A stretch of 64,000 nucleotides of DNA, taken from the UHGV virus genome UHGV-0168042. One strand, 5' to 3'. The DNA is from a virus. Of this stretch, positions 39,191-64,000 are shown in pieces. Numbering within the stretch: the first letter of the stretch is position 1; each line of letters begins with the position of its first letter. The position numbers and the translations under genes were made by a program. Under the pieces are notes generated by a model, which saw nothing but the letters and a program-made list of their open reading frames with translations, was not told where the DNA came from and made no database searches.

Positions 39191-39266
39191 TGGTGGCCCC
39201 TACCGGACTTGAACCGGTGACCGTGCGATTATGAGTCGCCCGCTCTAACCACTGAGCTAAAGGGCC
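39191..39266 (-). tRNA. tRNA with CAU anticodon, most similar to tRNA-Ile2 (lysidine-modified, AUA-reading)
   Basis: GGCCCTTTAGCTCAGTGGTTAGAGCGGGCGACTCATAATCGCACGGTCACCGGTTCAAGTCCGGTAGGGGCCACCA; cloverleaf folds; anticodon stem-loop identical to E. coli ileX as recalled. Confidence 0.8.
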
Positions 39267-41103: not shown

Positions 41104-41179
41104 TGGTGCCGGTTAACGGACTCGAACCGCTGACATCCTGCTTACAAGGCAGGCGCTCTACCAACTGAGCTAAACCGGC
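41104..41179 (-). tRNA. tRNA-Thr (anticodon UGU)
   Basis: GCCGGTTTAGCTCAGTTGGTAGAGCGCCTGCCTTGTAAGCAGGATGTCAGCGGTTCGAGTCCGTTAACCGGCACCA; canonical stems. Confidence 0.8.
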
Positions 41180-41181
41180 AT

Positions 41182-41258
41182 TGGCGATGGTGGGTGGATT
41201 CGAACCACCGACCGACAGCTTAGAAGGCTGCTGCTCTATCCTACTGAGCTACACCATC
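41182..41258 (-). tRNA. tRNA-Arg (anticodon UCU, AGA/AGG-reading)
   Basis: GATGGTGTAGCTCAGTAGGATAGAGCAGCAGCCTTCTAAGCTGTCGGTCGGTGGTTCGAATCCACCCACCATCGCCA; 2 nt from tRNA-Thr. Confidence 0.8.
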
Positions 41259-53395: not shown

Positions 53396-54099
53396 TCACC
53401 TCCCCAACCGATCACCTGGAATTGCCCCATTTTGGGGTGATACCAGCGTTTTCCTCGGTGTTCAGCCTCCGACATCATCCGGTTAAAAGCATTCATGAAG
53501 GGAGATAAGGCCACGATGGAACGACGCGACAATACCCCCTCTGGAGTTAAAAACTCATGCGTATCGGTGGGAATCCGGTAAGCGTTAACCAGGTTGCGAC
53601 ATTTGGCTTCAGTCAGGCCGCATTTCGCCGCCAGCTGGCGGTAGCCAATGTAGCCATCTGGCATATTGCCCTTCTTGATTTGCTCGACGGTTTCAGCGAC
53701 CTGGCTAACCTTTGACTCAACAGCATGAAGCCGCTTTTGCTGCTGAACTGCATTTGCAGCCATTGCGGCGATCATCTCTATTTCGGTCAACGGCTGGCGT
53801 ACTTGTTCTTCCAGTTCGCGCCAGCGGTCCACCAGCCGGGCAGTAAACTCAGGACAAAGCTGTGCGACTACAATGATACTGTCTCGTTTGCCTTGCTCGT
53901 CGCTAAATCGGAACACCTGAATTAATCGAGAACGCCCCATTACATCTATTTTTGGTTCATCCTCAATTTGAGGACGAACAATAACGCCGGATTCGGCTAA
54001 TGTTTCAATGGTACGCTTCACATTGTCATGACGTTTTCCCACCAGCTCCGCGATCTCAATGCTGGTCATTGATGGCTTTTCAAGAATGCAGATATCCAT
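53392..54099 (-). CDS. Rha-family phage regulatory protein (antirepressor-like), copy 2
   Basis: 235 aa; MTSIEIAELVGKRHDNVKRTIETLA; central region near-identical to copy 1 (KRDSIIVVAQL, TARLVDRWRELE, GYIGYRQLAAKCGLTEAKCRNLVNA). Confidence 0.65.
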   Translation of the reverse strand: MDICILEKPSMTSIEIAELVGKRHDNVKRTIETLAESGVIVRPQIEDEPKIDVMGRSRLIQVFRFSDEQGKRDSIIVVAQLCPEFTARLVDRWRELEEQVRQPLTEIEMIAAMAANAVQQQKRLHAVESKVSQVAETVEQIKKGNMPDGYIGYRQLAAKCGLTEAKCRNLVNAYRIPTDTHEFLTPEGVLSRRSIVALSPFMNAFNRMMSEAEHRGKRWYHPKMGQFQVIGWGGE

Positions 54100-58658: not shown

Positions 58659-60056
58659 TTAGTTTTCCGTACGGCAATTATTTAGATCTGTAGAATTTTC
58701 AAACATAGCAAAGTTCAGACCTTTCCCTTCGCCAAATTCACCCTCAATTTCATCAGATACAGCAGACAAAATACGACGCAGATCAACATCGCCACCGCCG
58801 AACATATCGCCCAATGCCTGTTGTTTATGAGTCAGCTCGTCGTTGATTTTTTGCGCCATTTTTTTGAATGCTGCCCCCATACGCTTCGCACTGCGATTAT
58901 TTGCTACGATGAATAACGCCAATGCCTCAGCTTCCGGTGTACTGTCGCCGAATAACCCCCTTTGGGCGATCACTTCTTCAACGGCCTGACCGTTGTCTTT
59001 GGCTTCACGTACAAGATTAATTGCTTCCTGGAGTGCTGCTATCGCCTGTGTATCCAGGCCATTAACCTGCTCTATACCGTCCACTAAGCCTGTTACTGCG
59101 TCATGGTGAGCGTCGCCAGACAGCGACTGCATTTGCGCAAAATCGCTGGCTGCCGTATTTAATGCGGTCAGGATATTACGCATTTCCGGATCTGGCTCTT
59201 CCGACACCAGCCGAACAAGCCTTTCATCCTTGTACGCTTTGGCAAAAATTGCATTCTGGATGCGATCGATAAGCTGTTTCGTGGGACGCCCATCGGCAGT
59301 AAGCAAGCCTGCCGTCGCTGTATCGCCAATTTCGCGCAAAAACGCACGAATAAACGCATCATTGGACCGCGCCAGCAGATTTCCATCATCTGAAGGATTA
59401 AATAGCGCCATGACGCTCTCAGTGAGAAATTGCGCATCCGCATACGCTTTTTCACTTGCTGCCATCTCTTGCAGATCGCTAATGTTTGAATCGCGGGCAA
59501 ATTGAGCGCGGTCTACATCTGTGAGTCTTTCTCGCACCAGTACGGGCATAGACATTTGCGAAATTTCGTCAGGATTCAGACCAAACTCTTTCGCATGGTC
59601 GATCAGGTACTGGCGATACTCATCCGCCTGTCCTTGCTCATAGGCACGCCAGATACCCATACTCCTTCCGTTGCCGGATTCAACAACGTTGTCCGGACCA
59701 ACTATCGGCGCTCCGTGGCTGCTCATACCGGAATCCGTTAATTGTGCCGGGCGTAAATTGGAGGCAATACGGTTAACCTGGAGTTTGCTGGATAACCGGG
59801 TACGATCTCGTGGTTGGAGTTCTTCCGGGAAGGCCGGGTTAATCGTACCGTCAAGGTTGTTCGAAATGATCAGACTGCTGGCATCAACGACCTTAAAAGC
59901 CGTCTTTACCTCTGCACCTTTGCTGGTGACTACGTAGCTACTTCGCCCCAGGCGTGTTTCTTTCCTCTCTAATGAAGAAACCAGAGCAATGACGCTGTTA
60001 ATATCTGTGGCCCCGGAAAGCGCAGAAGTAACTGATTTGTTCAAAATACACTCCAA
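58659..60056 (-). CDS. Hypothetical structural/internal protein
   Basis: 465-aa ORF. Confidence 0.4.
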   Translation of the reverse strand: MECILNKSVTSALSGATDINSVIALVSSLERKETRLGRSSYVVTSKGAEVKTAFKVVDASSLIISNNLDGTINPAFPEELQPRDRTRLSSKLQVNRIASNLRPAQLTDSGMSSHGAPIVGPDNVVESGNGRSMGIWRAYEQGQADEYRQYLIDHAKEFGLNPDEISQMSMPVLVRERLTDVDRAQFARDSNISDLQEMAASEKAYADAQFLTESVMALFNPSDDGNLLARSNDAFIRAFLREIGDTATAGLLTADGRPTKQLIDRIQNAIFAKAYKDERLVRLVSEEPDPEMRNILTALNTAASDFAQMQSLSGDAHHDAVTGLVDGIEQVNGLDTQAIAALQEAINLVREAKDNGQAVEEVIAQRGLFGDSTPEAEALALFIVANNRSAKRMGAAFKKMAQKINDELTHKQQALGDMFGGGDVDLRRILSAVSDEIEGEFGEGKGLNFAMFENSTDLNNCRTEN

Positions 60057-60138
60057 CGATAGAGAAAGCTGTGAGTGTAAAAAGTGTGTGATTTATGTGA
60101 GAACAGATAAGTGAAAGGGGCATTTCAGCCCCTTTTGA

Positions 60139-60507
60139 TTACCCGGCATAACCGTTAGCTTTCACCCAGCTTATGGTCTGCTCTTTAGCCTGCTCCAACG
60201 TAAGGAACTCGCCAACATAGTTTGATATCCCACGCAGCGCATCAATAAATTCCATTTGTGTGGACTTTGTGAAGACACCGCCCAGGAAGTCAGTCACTAT
60301 CTTAGGGACTTCATCTACAACAGGATCAGTCTGTTGTTGCGGTTCCGCTGCCGGTTGCGCGGCAGTCCCCAGGCCCAATTTCAGCATCACATCAACAATC
60401 TGCTTACCAATGGTGACGCGTTGCAATACTGGCGCAGTTTTCTGCGCCTGCATTAGATCTGATAGCTCTTTACCTAATTTCAGGCGGTCTAAAACAGAGA
60501 TGGTCAT
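60139..60507 (-). CDS. Hypothetical protein
   Basis: 122-aa ORF; start overlaps upstream stop. Confidence 0.4.
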   Translation of the reverse strand: MTISVLDRLKLGKELSDLMQAQKTAPVLQRVTIGKQIVDVMLKLGLGTAAQPAAEPQQQTDPVVDEVPKIVTDFLGGVFTKSTQMEFIDALRGISNYVGEFLTLEQAKEQTISWVKANGYAG

Positions 60508-62471
60508 TAAGCACCTCCCTGCTGAATTTCAGCCAGAATGTTGATCAGGTAGTCAACTGCTGCACCAACAGTGGCTTCGTTCTCGTCGTATCGACCTGCA
60601 CTGATTAGAGCGTTTGCTGCTTCCTGCACATGATCAAGTTCAGCACTGATGACCGTCAGATCGCGGGATGTAAACTGCTCCGGCACGGATTTCAGGTACT
60701 CCAGTGCTTTATCTGCCTCCTGATCAGCTTCACTTGCTGATTCACCAGCTTCTTCTGGCTCCGGCTCCTGTTCTGGTGCTGGTTGTGGTTGTGATTCCGG
60801 CTCAACCACATGCTCTGTTTTTACTTCGCTTGAATGATTTTGAAGGGCGTTATACACGTCCATAATGAAAAGGTTCTCCCCATCACCAAGTGGATACGCC
60901 ACGTTTGGAAACGCTTTGCGGAAAAGAATTTTCACTTGCGCCTTGAATGTTTTCAGGTCACTGCCAAACAGGTCTACATAGCCATCAATATGTTTCGACA
61001 TGCTGGACACAACCAATTGGCCTGCAAAATCTTTCAGCTCATCTTCATCAGGAAGATAAAGCAACTCGTACTGGCTGACTTCTTCATCTGTCAGTTTACG
61101 GTCATACGTAATGATACCGTGACGAGCATATTCGTAATACTGATCAGCCTGGTCAGGACGATCAAGCACGGCTTTATTTCCATCCGGCACAGCACCAACA
61201 CCAGCCGGGCGAGATTGAAGTGCATAGTGGTATTTACCTACATCCTGGCTCTCTGGTTGTGATACTGGGTTCGTCTCGGGGTCTGTCTGTGGTGGTTCGG
61301 GGTCTTCCTGCTGGCCTGGTAACACATCAACTTTATATTTATCTGCGTTATGCTCTCGGTAGGCTTTAAGTAATTTGGTTGCAGCATCTGCCAAACTGCC
61401 TCCTTTGACAGCACTGGCATCAATACTGAATTTACCTTCAGGTGCTACTATCGTAACGAAATTGTCACTGCCGGACGTGATATAATTAACTTCAGCGCCA
61501 TTATCCAGCACTGTTTTTCCGTCAATGGCAAGATTATGTTTTACATGTCGCAGCTGGTCACTAAACGCTCGTTCCTTCGTTTTTTCACCTTTAGCAGACA
61601 ACAATTTATCGCGTTTTTCTTGTAATTCCTCGTTGATGGCTTTCTGGGCATCAAGTTTTTTTTGCATCTCCGTAAGAGCAGCACGCTTTTCAGTCAGCCC
61701 ACGTTGCGCAACGTCCACCTGATCAATCATTATTGACCGTTCTTCTGCCAGTTTATCTGCTTCATTGAGATAACTCTCAATATCTGCCTTCATTTTGTCC
61801 TGGCGCTCTTTTGCTTTCTTAAATTTTTCGCTGTTACGCTCAATCAAATTAGATAGCGCCTGGCATACCTGGCTTAAAGAAACATCTCTCCCACCAATCG
61901 GGGCGACAACGTGAGTTACGTTACGCTTATTAAGTAAAAACTGAAATGCAACAAGCTCGTCGTTACTCTTTATTTTTGCCCCGTCAGCTGTTGGAGAGTG
62001 GAAAATTATGCTTGTACTCTGCCCGTCAGTAAGCGGTATCTGCGCGGTCAAAACAGGGATATTAGCTACCCGGCGTACACGACCGATAATCGCACCACCA
62101 ATACAATTACGTCCATTTTCATCGGTCCCGGCTTCATCAGTCCCTGCCATAATATTCGTACCATTCAGGCCACGATTCAGCGCACGGACGAAAGCTCGCA
62201 TTGTTTGAGCTAACCGAATTCTGGTTGTAGTTATGGACTCAAACATAGCTTCGTCAGACACAACCAGAATTTCATTGCCCATATAGGCAAGCTCAATATC
62301 TTCTAAGGTCGCCGCCTCAAAAATCAGGTCATCTTCGCTTAATTCTTCTGAAGACCAGCGACTTGGCACATAGCCGGGGATCGTATCAGCAAAAGTAGAC
62401 TGAATATTAATTCGTAAAGGATTGTTAATCATGCTCATCCTCCAGGCGCGCGATTTCTTCTTTAAGAGCAC
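60507..62471 (-). CDS. Large hypothetical protein with central coiled coil and acidic tail (DarA-like by size/position only)
   Basis: 654-aa ORF. Confidence 0.35.
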   Translation of the reverse strand: MLLKKKSRAWRMSMINNPLRINIQSTFADTIPGYVPSRWSSEELSEDDLIFEAATLEDIELAYMGNEILVVSDEAMFESITTTRIRLAQTMRAFVRALNRGLNGTNIMAGTDEAGTDENGRNCIGGAIIGRVRRVANIPVLTAQIPLTDGQSTSIIFHSPTADGAKIKSNDELVAFQFLLNKRNVTHVVAPIGGRDVSLSQVCQALSNLIERNSEKFKKAKERQDKMKADIESYLNEADKLAEERSIMIDQVDVAQRGLTEKRAALTEMQKKLDAQKAINEELQEKRDKLLSAKGEKTKERAFSDQLRHVKHNLAIDGKTVLDNGAEVNYITSGSDNFVTIVAPEGKFSIDASAVKGGSLADAATKLLKAYREHNADKYKVDVLPGQQEDPEPPQTDPETNPVSQPESQDVGKYHYALQSRPAGVGAVPDGNKAVLDRPDQADQYYEYARHGIITYDRKLTDEEVSQYELLYLPDEDELKDFAGQLVVSSMSKHIDGYVDLFGSDLKTFKAQVKILFRKAFPNVAYPLGDGENLFIMDVYNALQNHSSEVKTEHVVEPESQPQPAPEQEPEPEEAGESASEADQEADKALEYLKSVPEQFTSRDLTVISAELDHVQEAANALISAGRYDENEATVGAAVDYLINILAEIQQGGA

Positions 62472-63045
62472 GTGTCTTAGCTACTTCCTGAGACAAGGCA
62501 GCTTTAACGTTACCCGTATCTTGCATTACTTTGTCTGACTTGCTCTGGAGTTTAGACAGTTTGTCGTTAGCATTAGCGATATCTTCACGGAGTGCATCAC
62601 GTGATTCTTTCGCTTCAGCTAATTTCTGAGCGTTAGATTTAACTCCCTGCCGCTTCTTATTTCCGTCATCAATATTTTTTGCTGCACGAGCAAGTTTTCG
62701 AGCTAATGACTTCTGGAAAGAAGTTGCTCCGCGATTAAATAAAGCCGCAAGAGATTGCCCCAAAGCCGACATTGTTTTTCCTGGCTTGAACGGTACTGTT
62801 TTACCATTCAGTTTGATCCCAGATATATCACCGGTATCGTTAACCTGAACTTCCATTGTCTGTTCATCAATACCAATAAGGGTAAACGTGCGCGTCATGA
62901 TCCCATCTTTCTTCCTGCCATTACTTGCAGGGATCACCCTCGCTATCTTGTAACCACCTTTGCTGATTTCTTTGACGAGTTTTGCCAGCCCCTTTTCGTT
63001 TAACTCATCATAATTAAGAAGAACATAATTATTCTTATTTGACAT
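62425..63045 (-). CDS. Hypothetical coiled-coil protein
   Basis: 206-aa ORF. Confidence 0.35.
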   Translation of the reverse strand: MSNKNNYVLLNYDELNEKGLAKLVKEISKGGYKIARVIPASNGRKKDGIMTRTFTLIGIDEQTMEVQVNDTGDISGIKLNGKTVPFKPGKTMSALGQSLAALFNRGATSFQKSLARKLARAAKNIDDGNKKRQGVKSNAQKLAEAKESRDALREDIANANDKLSKLQSKSDKVMQDTGNVKAALSQEVAKTRALKEEIARLEDEHD

Positions 63046-63481
63046 CCCAGTCTCCTTTACGCTTTTCGATCGTAAACTGGCGCTCTATGCAGTCATTGAT
63101 AGGGAAAATGCGATAAAGCGGATTCAGTCGGCAGTTACCGTTAGTCAATGTGACTTTCAGATCCCACTTCGTTGGCTCAAGATATTTCGTATCGATGAGC
63201 AAATACTCTTCTCTCTCACCGCGTTTTGAGGCGTCAACTGGTCGCGTTTTCCCTGAAATAACCACAGATGGATTTTTCAGGTCTTGCAACCAATATTCGA
63301 TTTGAGCATTGCTGACCCAGCTTCGCTTAACACGTAGCGAAACAGGAAATGCTATAGCGGATTCTTTCACTACAGCGTCTCCAATACTCAAAATCTCAAC
63401 ACTCTTGCGACGAAAAATGAAACGGTCAATGATGGCAACAAATGCCATGATAAAAATGAAATAATTTCCAAAGTTACCCAT
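63035..63481 (-). CDS. Membrane-anchored protein, possible lysis regulator (antiholin-like by position)
   Basis: 148 aa; N-terminal hydrophobic helix YFIFIMAFVAIIDRFIF. Confidence 0.3.
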   Translation of the reverse strand: MGNFGNYFIFIMAFVAIIDRFIFRRKSVEILSIGDAVVKESAIAFPVSLRVKRSWVSNAQIEYWLQDLKNPSVVISGKTRPVDASKRGEREEYLLIDTKYLEPTKWDLKVTLTNGNCRLNPLYRIFPINDCIERQFTIEKRKGDWDVK

Positions 63482-63807
63482 TATTTCTCTCCACCTTTTC
63501 CCCCATTCGCTATTACGCTTAAGAGATTCAAGACGTTACTAGCTCTGGACTTCAAGCCCTGTAAAATTTCACTACCGTTGTTACTGGCAATCAGAACAAC
63601 GCAGAAAATGATACCTTCAGGCCATTCTTGGCTAACCGCCACCCCATACCCCGCAAGCCCGGCTGTTACCGCAGTAAACAATTCACTCGCAAGATTGAGC
63701 AGGGACGCAGAAATGCGCCCGTCTCTAACTCCGAGAAGGAATACGCCGGTTCCACTTAGTAGGGATGTTATGACTACTACAGCCAGATTTTCATAATCTG
63801 CAAACAT
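63481..63807 (-). CDS. Holin-like small membrane protein
   Basis: 108 aa; 2-3 hydrophobic segments, charged C-terminus GGKGGEK; GGAGGGG RBS. Confidence 0.4.
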   Translation of the reverse strand: MFADYENLAVVVITSLLSGTGVFLLGVRDGRISASLLNLASELFTAVTAGLAGYGVAVSQEWPEGIIFCVVLIASNNGSEILQGLKSRASNVLNLLSVIANGGKGGEK

Positions 63808-63910
63808 ACCCCTCCAGAAATAACATCTAATGCGCCACTAACTTAGTCAGTTTGTTATTTCCTTACAGGACATCTTCTAGGATCGTATCCTTAGCATACA
63901 AGGGAGACAT

Positions 63911-64000
63911 ATGCTTATTGGATACATTCGCATATCAACAAATGATGATGCGCCGCGCGATAAATGCACTCTATCTTGTGCGATAAATGGCATCCACGCG
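63911..64000 (+). CDS. Serine recombinase (invertase/resolvase family) N-terminus; continues past window end
   Basis: MLIGYIRISTNDD... matches the conserved MxIGYxRVSTxxQ start with catalytic Ser; AGGGAG RBS 5 nt upstream; only 30 codons in window. Confidence 0.4.
   Translation, partial: MLIGYIRISTNDDAPRDKCTLSCAINGIHA

Follow-up and report, generated by a model that had tools for sequence, protein, structure and literature searches.

A stump of cin joined to the right terminus of a BcepMu-type transposable prophage in a D6/P1-family phage-plasmid

The tail fibres of phages such as P1 and Mu are switched by serine recombinases of the resolvase/invertase family, and the closest described relatives of the locus reported here belong to such systems. 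In P1 and D6, the 561-nt cin gene adjoins lydA and belongs to a Cin/cix system with a C segment, whereas in Mu the invertase gene gin is located between the invertible fibre segment and the right end of the phage, is transcribed towards that end with com and mom in between, and acts at gix sites on a single two-state segment. In p15B, likewise a P1-related plasmid, the resident Cin-like system has reportedly been substituted by a Pin-like one, termed Min, so that a foreign invertase with many cassettes has replaced the resident inversion module. A further point of reference is provided by the BcepMu-type transposable phages BcepMu, phiE255 and PhiKM, which have in common a DDE transposase of the rve family that is paired with an AAA+ protein, as well as Mor, Gam and a portal of the Mu type, and which insert at many sites with 6-bp duplications. 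In D6-like plasmids, the inversion region was described as the most divergent part of the genome (PMC6799933).

The window, i.e., the whole stretch of 64,000 nt of the virus genome UHGV-0168042 that was analysed, is a D6/P1-family phage-plasmid. Its best backbone matches in PLSDB reach 98.4-98.5 % and carry other junction types, while pKY1497_2 is 99.7 % identical to the last 8 kb; the backbone of the JS316 plasmid is also very close (99.7 %). Collinearity with pKY1497_2 is broken over about 137 nt (53899-54036), upstream of which the identity is lower (97.2 % versus 98.6 %), as would fit a backbone of mosaic origin. The minus strand carries three tRNA genes (Met-CAT, Thr-TGT and Arg-TCT) at 39191-39266, 41104-41179 and 41182-41258. 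In several relatives, an insQ/TnpB gene of the RNA-guided endonuclease family is inserted between the ddrB-like and ddrA-like genes (L003 4397-5605 in p13ZX28-90), and this insertion is absent from the window (58659-60507).

The last 2 kb hold three minus-strand genes, namely an hdf-like gene, lydB (63035-63481) and lydA (Table 1), beyond which an open frame with the start of a cin gene reaches the window edge. The cin ribosome-binding site AAGGGAG is retained at 63900-63906 ahead of the ATG, and a cin promoter may lie in the intergenic region, although a promoter and terminator scan of the junction gave no signal above chance. The frame reads MLIGYIRISTNDDAPRDKCTLSCAINGIHA up to the edge and has no stop inside the window. 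An earlier note on this DNA, which was made from the sequence and its open reading frames, had placed the N-terminus of an invertase in the last 90 bp, right after a holin-like gene. The neighbour was correctly recognised, as the lydA holin gene is 103 nt away and divergent, whereas the reading of the 90 bp is borne out in part: codons 1-12 (MLIGYIRISTND) are identical to D6 Cin (MLIGYIRVSTND) at 11 of 12 positions and include the catalytic-serine motif Y-x-R-x-S-T, the sole part of an invertase that is left, but only 35 of the 90 bases are recombinase-derived. The same note had seen no cix- or gix-type site upstream, and indeed there is none in 62000-64000 or in the whole window.

Table 1. 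Features at the right-hand edge of the window, in window positions.
Feature	Position	Strand	Basis
lydA-type holin gene	63481-63807	-	ORF list; D6 orthologue annotated "holin, similar to P1 lydA"; divergent from the stump
lydA-cin intergenic region, 103 nt	63808-63910	+	collinear with D6, pKOr024_2, JS316 and the O22:H8 plasmid
35-nt 5' stump of the resident D6-type cin, codons 1 to 11 2/3, including YIRIST	63911-63945	+	33/35 identical to D6 cin
Chimeric ORF (stump plus transposon end), 30 codons in the window	63911-64000	+	stop would be at window-equivalent 64061-64063
Right-end terminal 55 nt of a BcepMu-type (Mu-like) prophage, inward from 5'-TGAT	63946-64000	- (element)	100 % identity
First GCGATAAATG repeat, putative terminal transposase-binding site	63957-63966	+	direct reading
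Second GCGATAAATG repeat, putative transposase-binding site, 23 nt after the first	63980-63989	+	aligns with Mu attR ...CACGATAAATGCG

When 62000-64000 was compared with phage genomes by megablast, the alignment to D6 (98.9 % over 62000-63945) ended at 63945, and the last 55-56 nt of the window gave 100 % matches to unrelated records. The break falls after ...CAACAAATGA, past which the intact cin alleles of D6 and the O22:H8 plasmid read CCAAAACACC... and the window reads TGATGCGCCGCGCGATAAATG.... Because the D6 match spans the whole of 62000-63945 and ends exactly there, the N-terminal similarity to Cin is true orthology rather than chance. The stump allele agrees at all 35 positions with the cin pseudogenes of pKOr024_2 and JS316, and at 33 of 35 with intact cin. 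Like cin of P1 and D6, the stump adjoins lydA on the same strand and has the start codon and the catalytic-serine motif, but 35 of the 561 nt are left, cixL and a D6-type C segment are missing, and the plus-strand gene has been replaced. The rest of cin is found nowhere else in the window. Residues 13-30 of the frame (DAPRDKCTLSCAINGIHA) have none of 18 positions in common with Cin in a direct comparison; their coding sequence belongs to the end of a transposable prophage.

This terminus is identical, over all 55 nt, to the right end of a prophage inserted in ssuB of Escherichia coli SK1144 and of a copy inserted in rstB of E. coli ABU 83972. It shares with Mu attR the start TGA(A/T)GCG and, at equal distance, the second ...CGATAAATG... 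motif; the GCGATAAATG motif recurs with the same spacing at the left end of the prophage (GAGATAAATG) and corresponds in position to Mu R1/R2, and the paired GATAAAT motifs at both prophage ends align with Mu attR. In all five contexts examined, the terminus joins unrelated DNA at exactly the same base. It is unique within the window, and no other DNA of this prophage is present there besides these last 55 nt. Of 5426 complete E. coli genomes, 597 (~11 %) contain the 84 nt that follow the break; these genomes have up to three copies each, 641 chromosomal places in all, almost always with at least 99 % identity. A "recombinase family protein" always adjoins these copies, whereas the other neighbours vary (ssuB, yqhA, rstB, a type III secretion (FHIPEP) gene, lysC and others).

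The two chromosomal copies in SK1144 and ABU 83972 were examined in full and checked for target duplications. The SK1144 prophage comprises 38,545 bp and splits ssuB (L008 4333-42877), and the ABU 83972 prophage comprises 37,701 bp and splits rstB (L013 4075-41775); each is flanked by a 6-bp target duplication, TCGAGA in ssuB and ACAAAT in rstB, and the element ends are 5'-TGAT...ATCA-3'. Among the prophage products are Mor, Gam, a portal of the Mu type, a tail of the Mu/P2 type, and a DDE transposase of the rve family together with its AAA+ partner, while S, a fibre-assembly gene, fibre cassettes and an invertase gene are located at the right end. With complete prophages, a transposase, 6-bp duplications and 641 places next to different genes, the donor is a genuine transposable phage. 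The nearest named relatives of its transposase are those of PhiKM, KP12, BcepMu and phiE255, with 98.8 % identity to Escherichia phage PhiKM and about 69 % to BcepMu and phiE255. No Mu-specific (MuA-type) domains were detected in the donor transposase, the hits being to generic rve only, and the donor is therefore filed as BcepMu-type, which is Mu-like in the broad sense only. It shares with the BcepMu-type phages the gene set listed above and the insertion at many sites with 6-bp duplications, whereas the window carries the last 55 nt only and the related plasmids about 4 kb (the end, the invertase gene and the cassettes) without transposition genes. Unlike in Mu, but in agreement with the BcepMu-type phages, the early operon of the prophage points towards the left end. 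A 145-nt copy of the prophage left end, 89.7 % identical, was noticed in 67 large conjugative plasmids of E. coli and Klebsiella (e.g., NZ_CP005931.1 15876-16019), and it looks like another fossil of a BcepMu-type phage.

What lies beyond such a junction can be read in relatives. In pKY1497_2 and p13ZX28-90, an intact invertase gene of 190 codons is located on the minus strand at window-equivalent 64024-64596, with its stop 24 nt past the window. Its product shows 77 % identity with Mu Gin and 73 % with D6 Cin, contains the Resolvase (8e-51) and HTH_7 (1e-12) domains, and has the same accessions in the plasmids as in the chromosomal prophages (WP_000904922.1 and WP_001576683.1). Upstream of this gene, pKY1497_2 carries 26-bp gix-like sites (TTCCCCCAAACCAACGTTT...) at L005 17652 (-), 19267 (+) and 19706 (+), so that at least two sites point in the direction opposite to that of the first; the sites are located at the edges of inverted repeats of 231-247 nt, with which alternative C-terminal cassettes of the fibre begin. 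The orientation of the cassettes differs among pKY1497_2 (L005), p13ZX28-90 (L003), SK1144 (L008) and ABU 83972 (L013), as would be expected if a multi-site inversion switch were active, although this does not prove that one is. The captured Gin-like invertase most likely now runs the host-range switch of the tail fibre. The invertase gene has the same placement as in Mu, with the invertible fibre segment on one side and, on the other, the phage right end, towards which it is transcribed, and the crossover sites share the 12-2-12 layout with AAACC...GTTT cores. In contrast to Mu, there is no com/mom between the invertase gene and the end, the module is carried on a P1-family plasmid, and at least three crossover sites serve several tandem fibre-tip cassettes, so that the switch is a multi-cassette one rather than the simple two-state segment of P1 and Mu.

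In pKY1497_2, the prophage-derived DNA starts at the junction (L005 16947) and extends over about 4 kb, up to about 20.6-20.96 kb. Along this module, the identity to the prophages is 97-98 % in the invertase gene and cassettes, 87-88 % in distal S and 74-78 % in the S repeats, and D6-type S homology resumes at L005 20980 with 97-98 %. Because the homology changes from the prophage type to the D6 type within S, the expressed S gene of pKY1497_2 is chimeric, with an N-terminus from D6 and a C-terminal part from the transposable phage. The same S gene contains a 300-nt tandem duplication (98 %; L005 20353-20952) with internal 50-nt sub-repeats, which, located near the switch from prophage to D6 homology, is a plausible recombination substrate.

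Given the stump, the exactness of the terminus, a donor shown to be mobile and the length of donor DNA in the relatives, the junction can be read with good confidence as a fossil of a BcepMu-type phage that inserted in cin and was later trimmed by deletion. We infer the order of events and the way in which the deletion arose as follows. A transposable phage would have transposed into cin, or into an already dead cin allele, after nt 35 of the gene, with its right end facing the start of cin. The S gene of the inserted phage and that of the plasmid would then have been co-oriented; indeed, the S genes of the donor and of D6 both lie on the minus strand when viewed in the orientation of the window, which fits a simple deletion. 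A 38-kb insertion would also make the plasmid larger than a P1-type headful, so that a deletion would be selected. This deletion may have occurred between the two S genes, either by homologous recombination in the repetitive S region or at co-oriented gix/cix sites, and would have taken out ~34 kb of the transposable phage together with the remainder of cin and the original C segment. The order left behind would be the cin stump, the transposon terminus, a 78-nt spacer, the minus-strand gin-like invertase gene, gix-like sites with cassettes, and a chimeric S gene. The evidence for transposition is the base-exact terminus, and that for the deletion is the orientation of S and the place at which homology switches.

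An intermediate, namely a P1/D6-type plasmid with the whole prophage or its left end, was not found; the only hits were to the unrelated 145-nt fossil in the 67 conjugative plasmids. As the left end of the element is absent from the plasmids, there is no plasmid target duplication to set beside the 6-bp chromosomal ones. The capture is recent, as the terminus is 100 % identical to that of the donor prophages. In its donor-like part, however, S matches the two chromosomal prophages examined at only 74-88 % identity, so that the actual donor may have been another prophage, or an older resident module may have joined the recombination.

The strongest competitor of transposition followed by deletion is a module exchange with a chromosomal prophage without any transposition, in which homologous recombination in S would have made one joint and illegitimate recombination the other; this second break would have fallen by chance at the prophage end, or the terminus would have come with its flank on a packaged or excised fragment. 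Such an exchange would be in line with the replacement of a Cin-like by a Pin-like system that p15B is said to have undergone. The tail-fibre inversion region is, moreover, the most mosaic part of D6-like plasmids (PMC6799933). A carried-over flank would also suit the 40-70 nt of extra DNA between stump and terminus in pKOr024_2 and H8-A better than a direct insertion, but the window-type cin abuts the first base of the terminus with no extra DNA at all, and a chance illegitimate break at that very base is improbable, so that we regard this exchange as unlikely for the window, if the best of the alternatives to insertion and deletion.

Several simpler origins of the junction were rejected. Insertion of an IS element in cin was ruled out, as the 84-nt flank is the end of a 38-kb prophage. 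Cin recombination at a quasi-cix site at the junction does not apply, since the right side is a terminus without a cix-like half-site and no such site occurs in the window. Inversion of the body of an invertase gene between 35-nt inverted repeats was discarded because the repeat consists of two homologous gene starts, and also because the DNA between the repeats begins with the prophage terminus. The view that cin was hit by two independent insertions is weakened by the 40-70 nt of extra DNA at the older junction.

The fate of the frame that starts at the stump was followed in the plasmids that share the junction. Since 17 complete PLSDB plasmids match 63400-64000 end to end, and the junction also occurs in 14 plasmids in RefSeq E. 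coli, it cannot be put down to faulty assembly. The frame ends after 50 codons, 20 of them past the window, in p13ZX28-90, a plasmid identical to the window over all 601 nt of 63400-64000, and in pKY1497_2 RefSeq annotates no gene at this ORF; the window itself presumably continues like its relatives. The 50-codon ORF falls short of the invertase length of about 180-195 aa and overlaps, antisense and convergent, the last 40 nt of the real invertase gene. No hit to Resolvase (PF00239, about 140 aa) was obtained with the 50-aa product even at E <= 10, whereas D6 Cin and the neighbouring real invertase, used as controls, scored 173 and 172 bits, and HTH_7 was likewise without a hit in this product. 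The stump is non-functional as a recombinase. One could suppose that it has been kept for another function, the old cin promoter and ribosome-binding site driving the 50-aa peptide and/or an antisense transcript that damps inversion, as the ribosome-binding site and ATG are intact and the ORF converges on the invertase gene with an antisense overlap of 40 nt at its 3' end. We consider this very improbable, given that promoter and terminator signals do not rise above chance, that the peptide has no family match, and that the stumps of other lineages differ in length or have decayed, which looks like neutral decay; conservation is uninformative here, since the event is recent. Scarcely credible, finally, is an intact but divergent Cin/Gin-type gene that starts at 63911, runs past the window and inverts a downstream fibre segment, for the ribosome-binding site, the ATG, the 12 Cin-like N-terminal residues with their catalytic-serine motif and the frame without a stop inside the window are set against a Cin homology that ends at nt 35, residues 13-30 unlike Cin, a stop at codon 51 in all sequence-identical junctions, the missing Resolvase hit at E <= 10 and the lack of a gene in the RefSeq annotation.

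The serine recombinase gene that the earlier note had seen starting at the window edge is hence reduced to a 35-nt stump within a 50-codon chimeric ORF without a Resolvase domain. The note had itself named termination of the ORF within a few codons beyond the window as evidence against such a gene, and this is essentially what was found, with the stop 20 codons past the window in the junction-identical plasmid. Its expectation of an invertible host-range switch just beyond the window, in turn, is supported by every junction-sharing relative examined, but the switch would be run by another gene, which differs in origin and lies on the opposite strand. In annotations, the 5' fragment at 63911 should not be named a recombinase gene.

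Stumps of cin are also found in other members of the plasmid family. The JS316 plasmid (L010 616-1258) carries a frameshifted cin stump of 169 nt, which is joined to a truncated fibre-assembly gene without an invertase, and its fibre would apparently be locked and non-switching. Decayed cin stumps of about 300 nt and about 180 nt are present in pKOr024_2 and in the IncY P1-like plasmid H8-A, respectively, and in both (L006 16275 and L011 4247) the stump is followed by 40-70 nt of extra DNA, an older terminus and a minus-strand invertase gene, after which pKOr024_2 has eight plus-strand cassette ORFs. The older terminus variant, TGATG(C/T)GCCGCGCGATAA(G/A)TG, occurs at 182 plasmid places, in IncY P1-like and D6-like plasmids, and on no E. 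coli chromosome among the complete RefSeq genomes of this species. An invertase module of a transposable phage thus seems to have been captured beside a cin stump at least twice, once recently and once longer ago; for the older capture, direct insertion into cin is a candidate route only. The cassette array of pKOr024_2 is comparable to the many cassettes reported for Min of p15B, whereas the window-type capture, with its 100 % identity to living prophages, is distinct from Min and far younger. Full-text literature searches, whose scope did not extend to the p15B/Min, P1-genome and D6-genome papers, returned no description of a transposable-phage end in cin.

The junction is real but an ordinary mosaic, albeit one with a clear mechanistic signature: the terminus set against the cin stump is a rare readable record of the movement of an invertase and fibre module between two unrelated types of temperate phage, one transposable and the other a P1-family phage-plasmid. 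That a module could be swapped in one transposition-plus-deletion step is useful to know, if unsurprising in principle. The working invertase of the host-range switch in this plasmid family is most likely a captured Gin-like gene on the other strand, and the host-range modules of phage-plasmids bear on transduction and the spread of resistance genes. Whether BcepMu/Mu-type phages act more generally as delivery vehicles, which transpose in or beside cin of P1/D6 phage-plasmids, are trimmed and leave an invertase with cassettes behind, we hold to be evenly balanced; if this were true, much of the tail-fibre mosaicism of the plasmid family would stem from transposition and not from homologous exchange alone.
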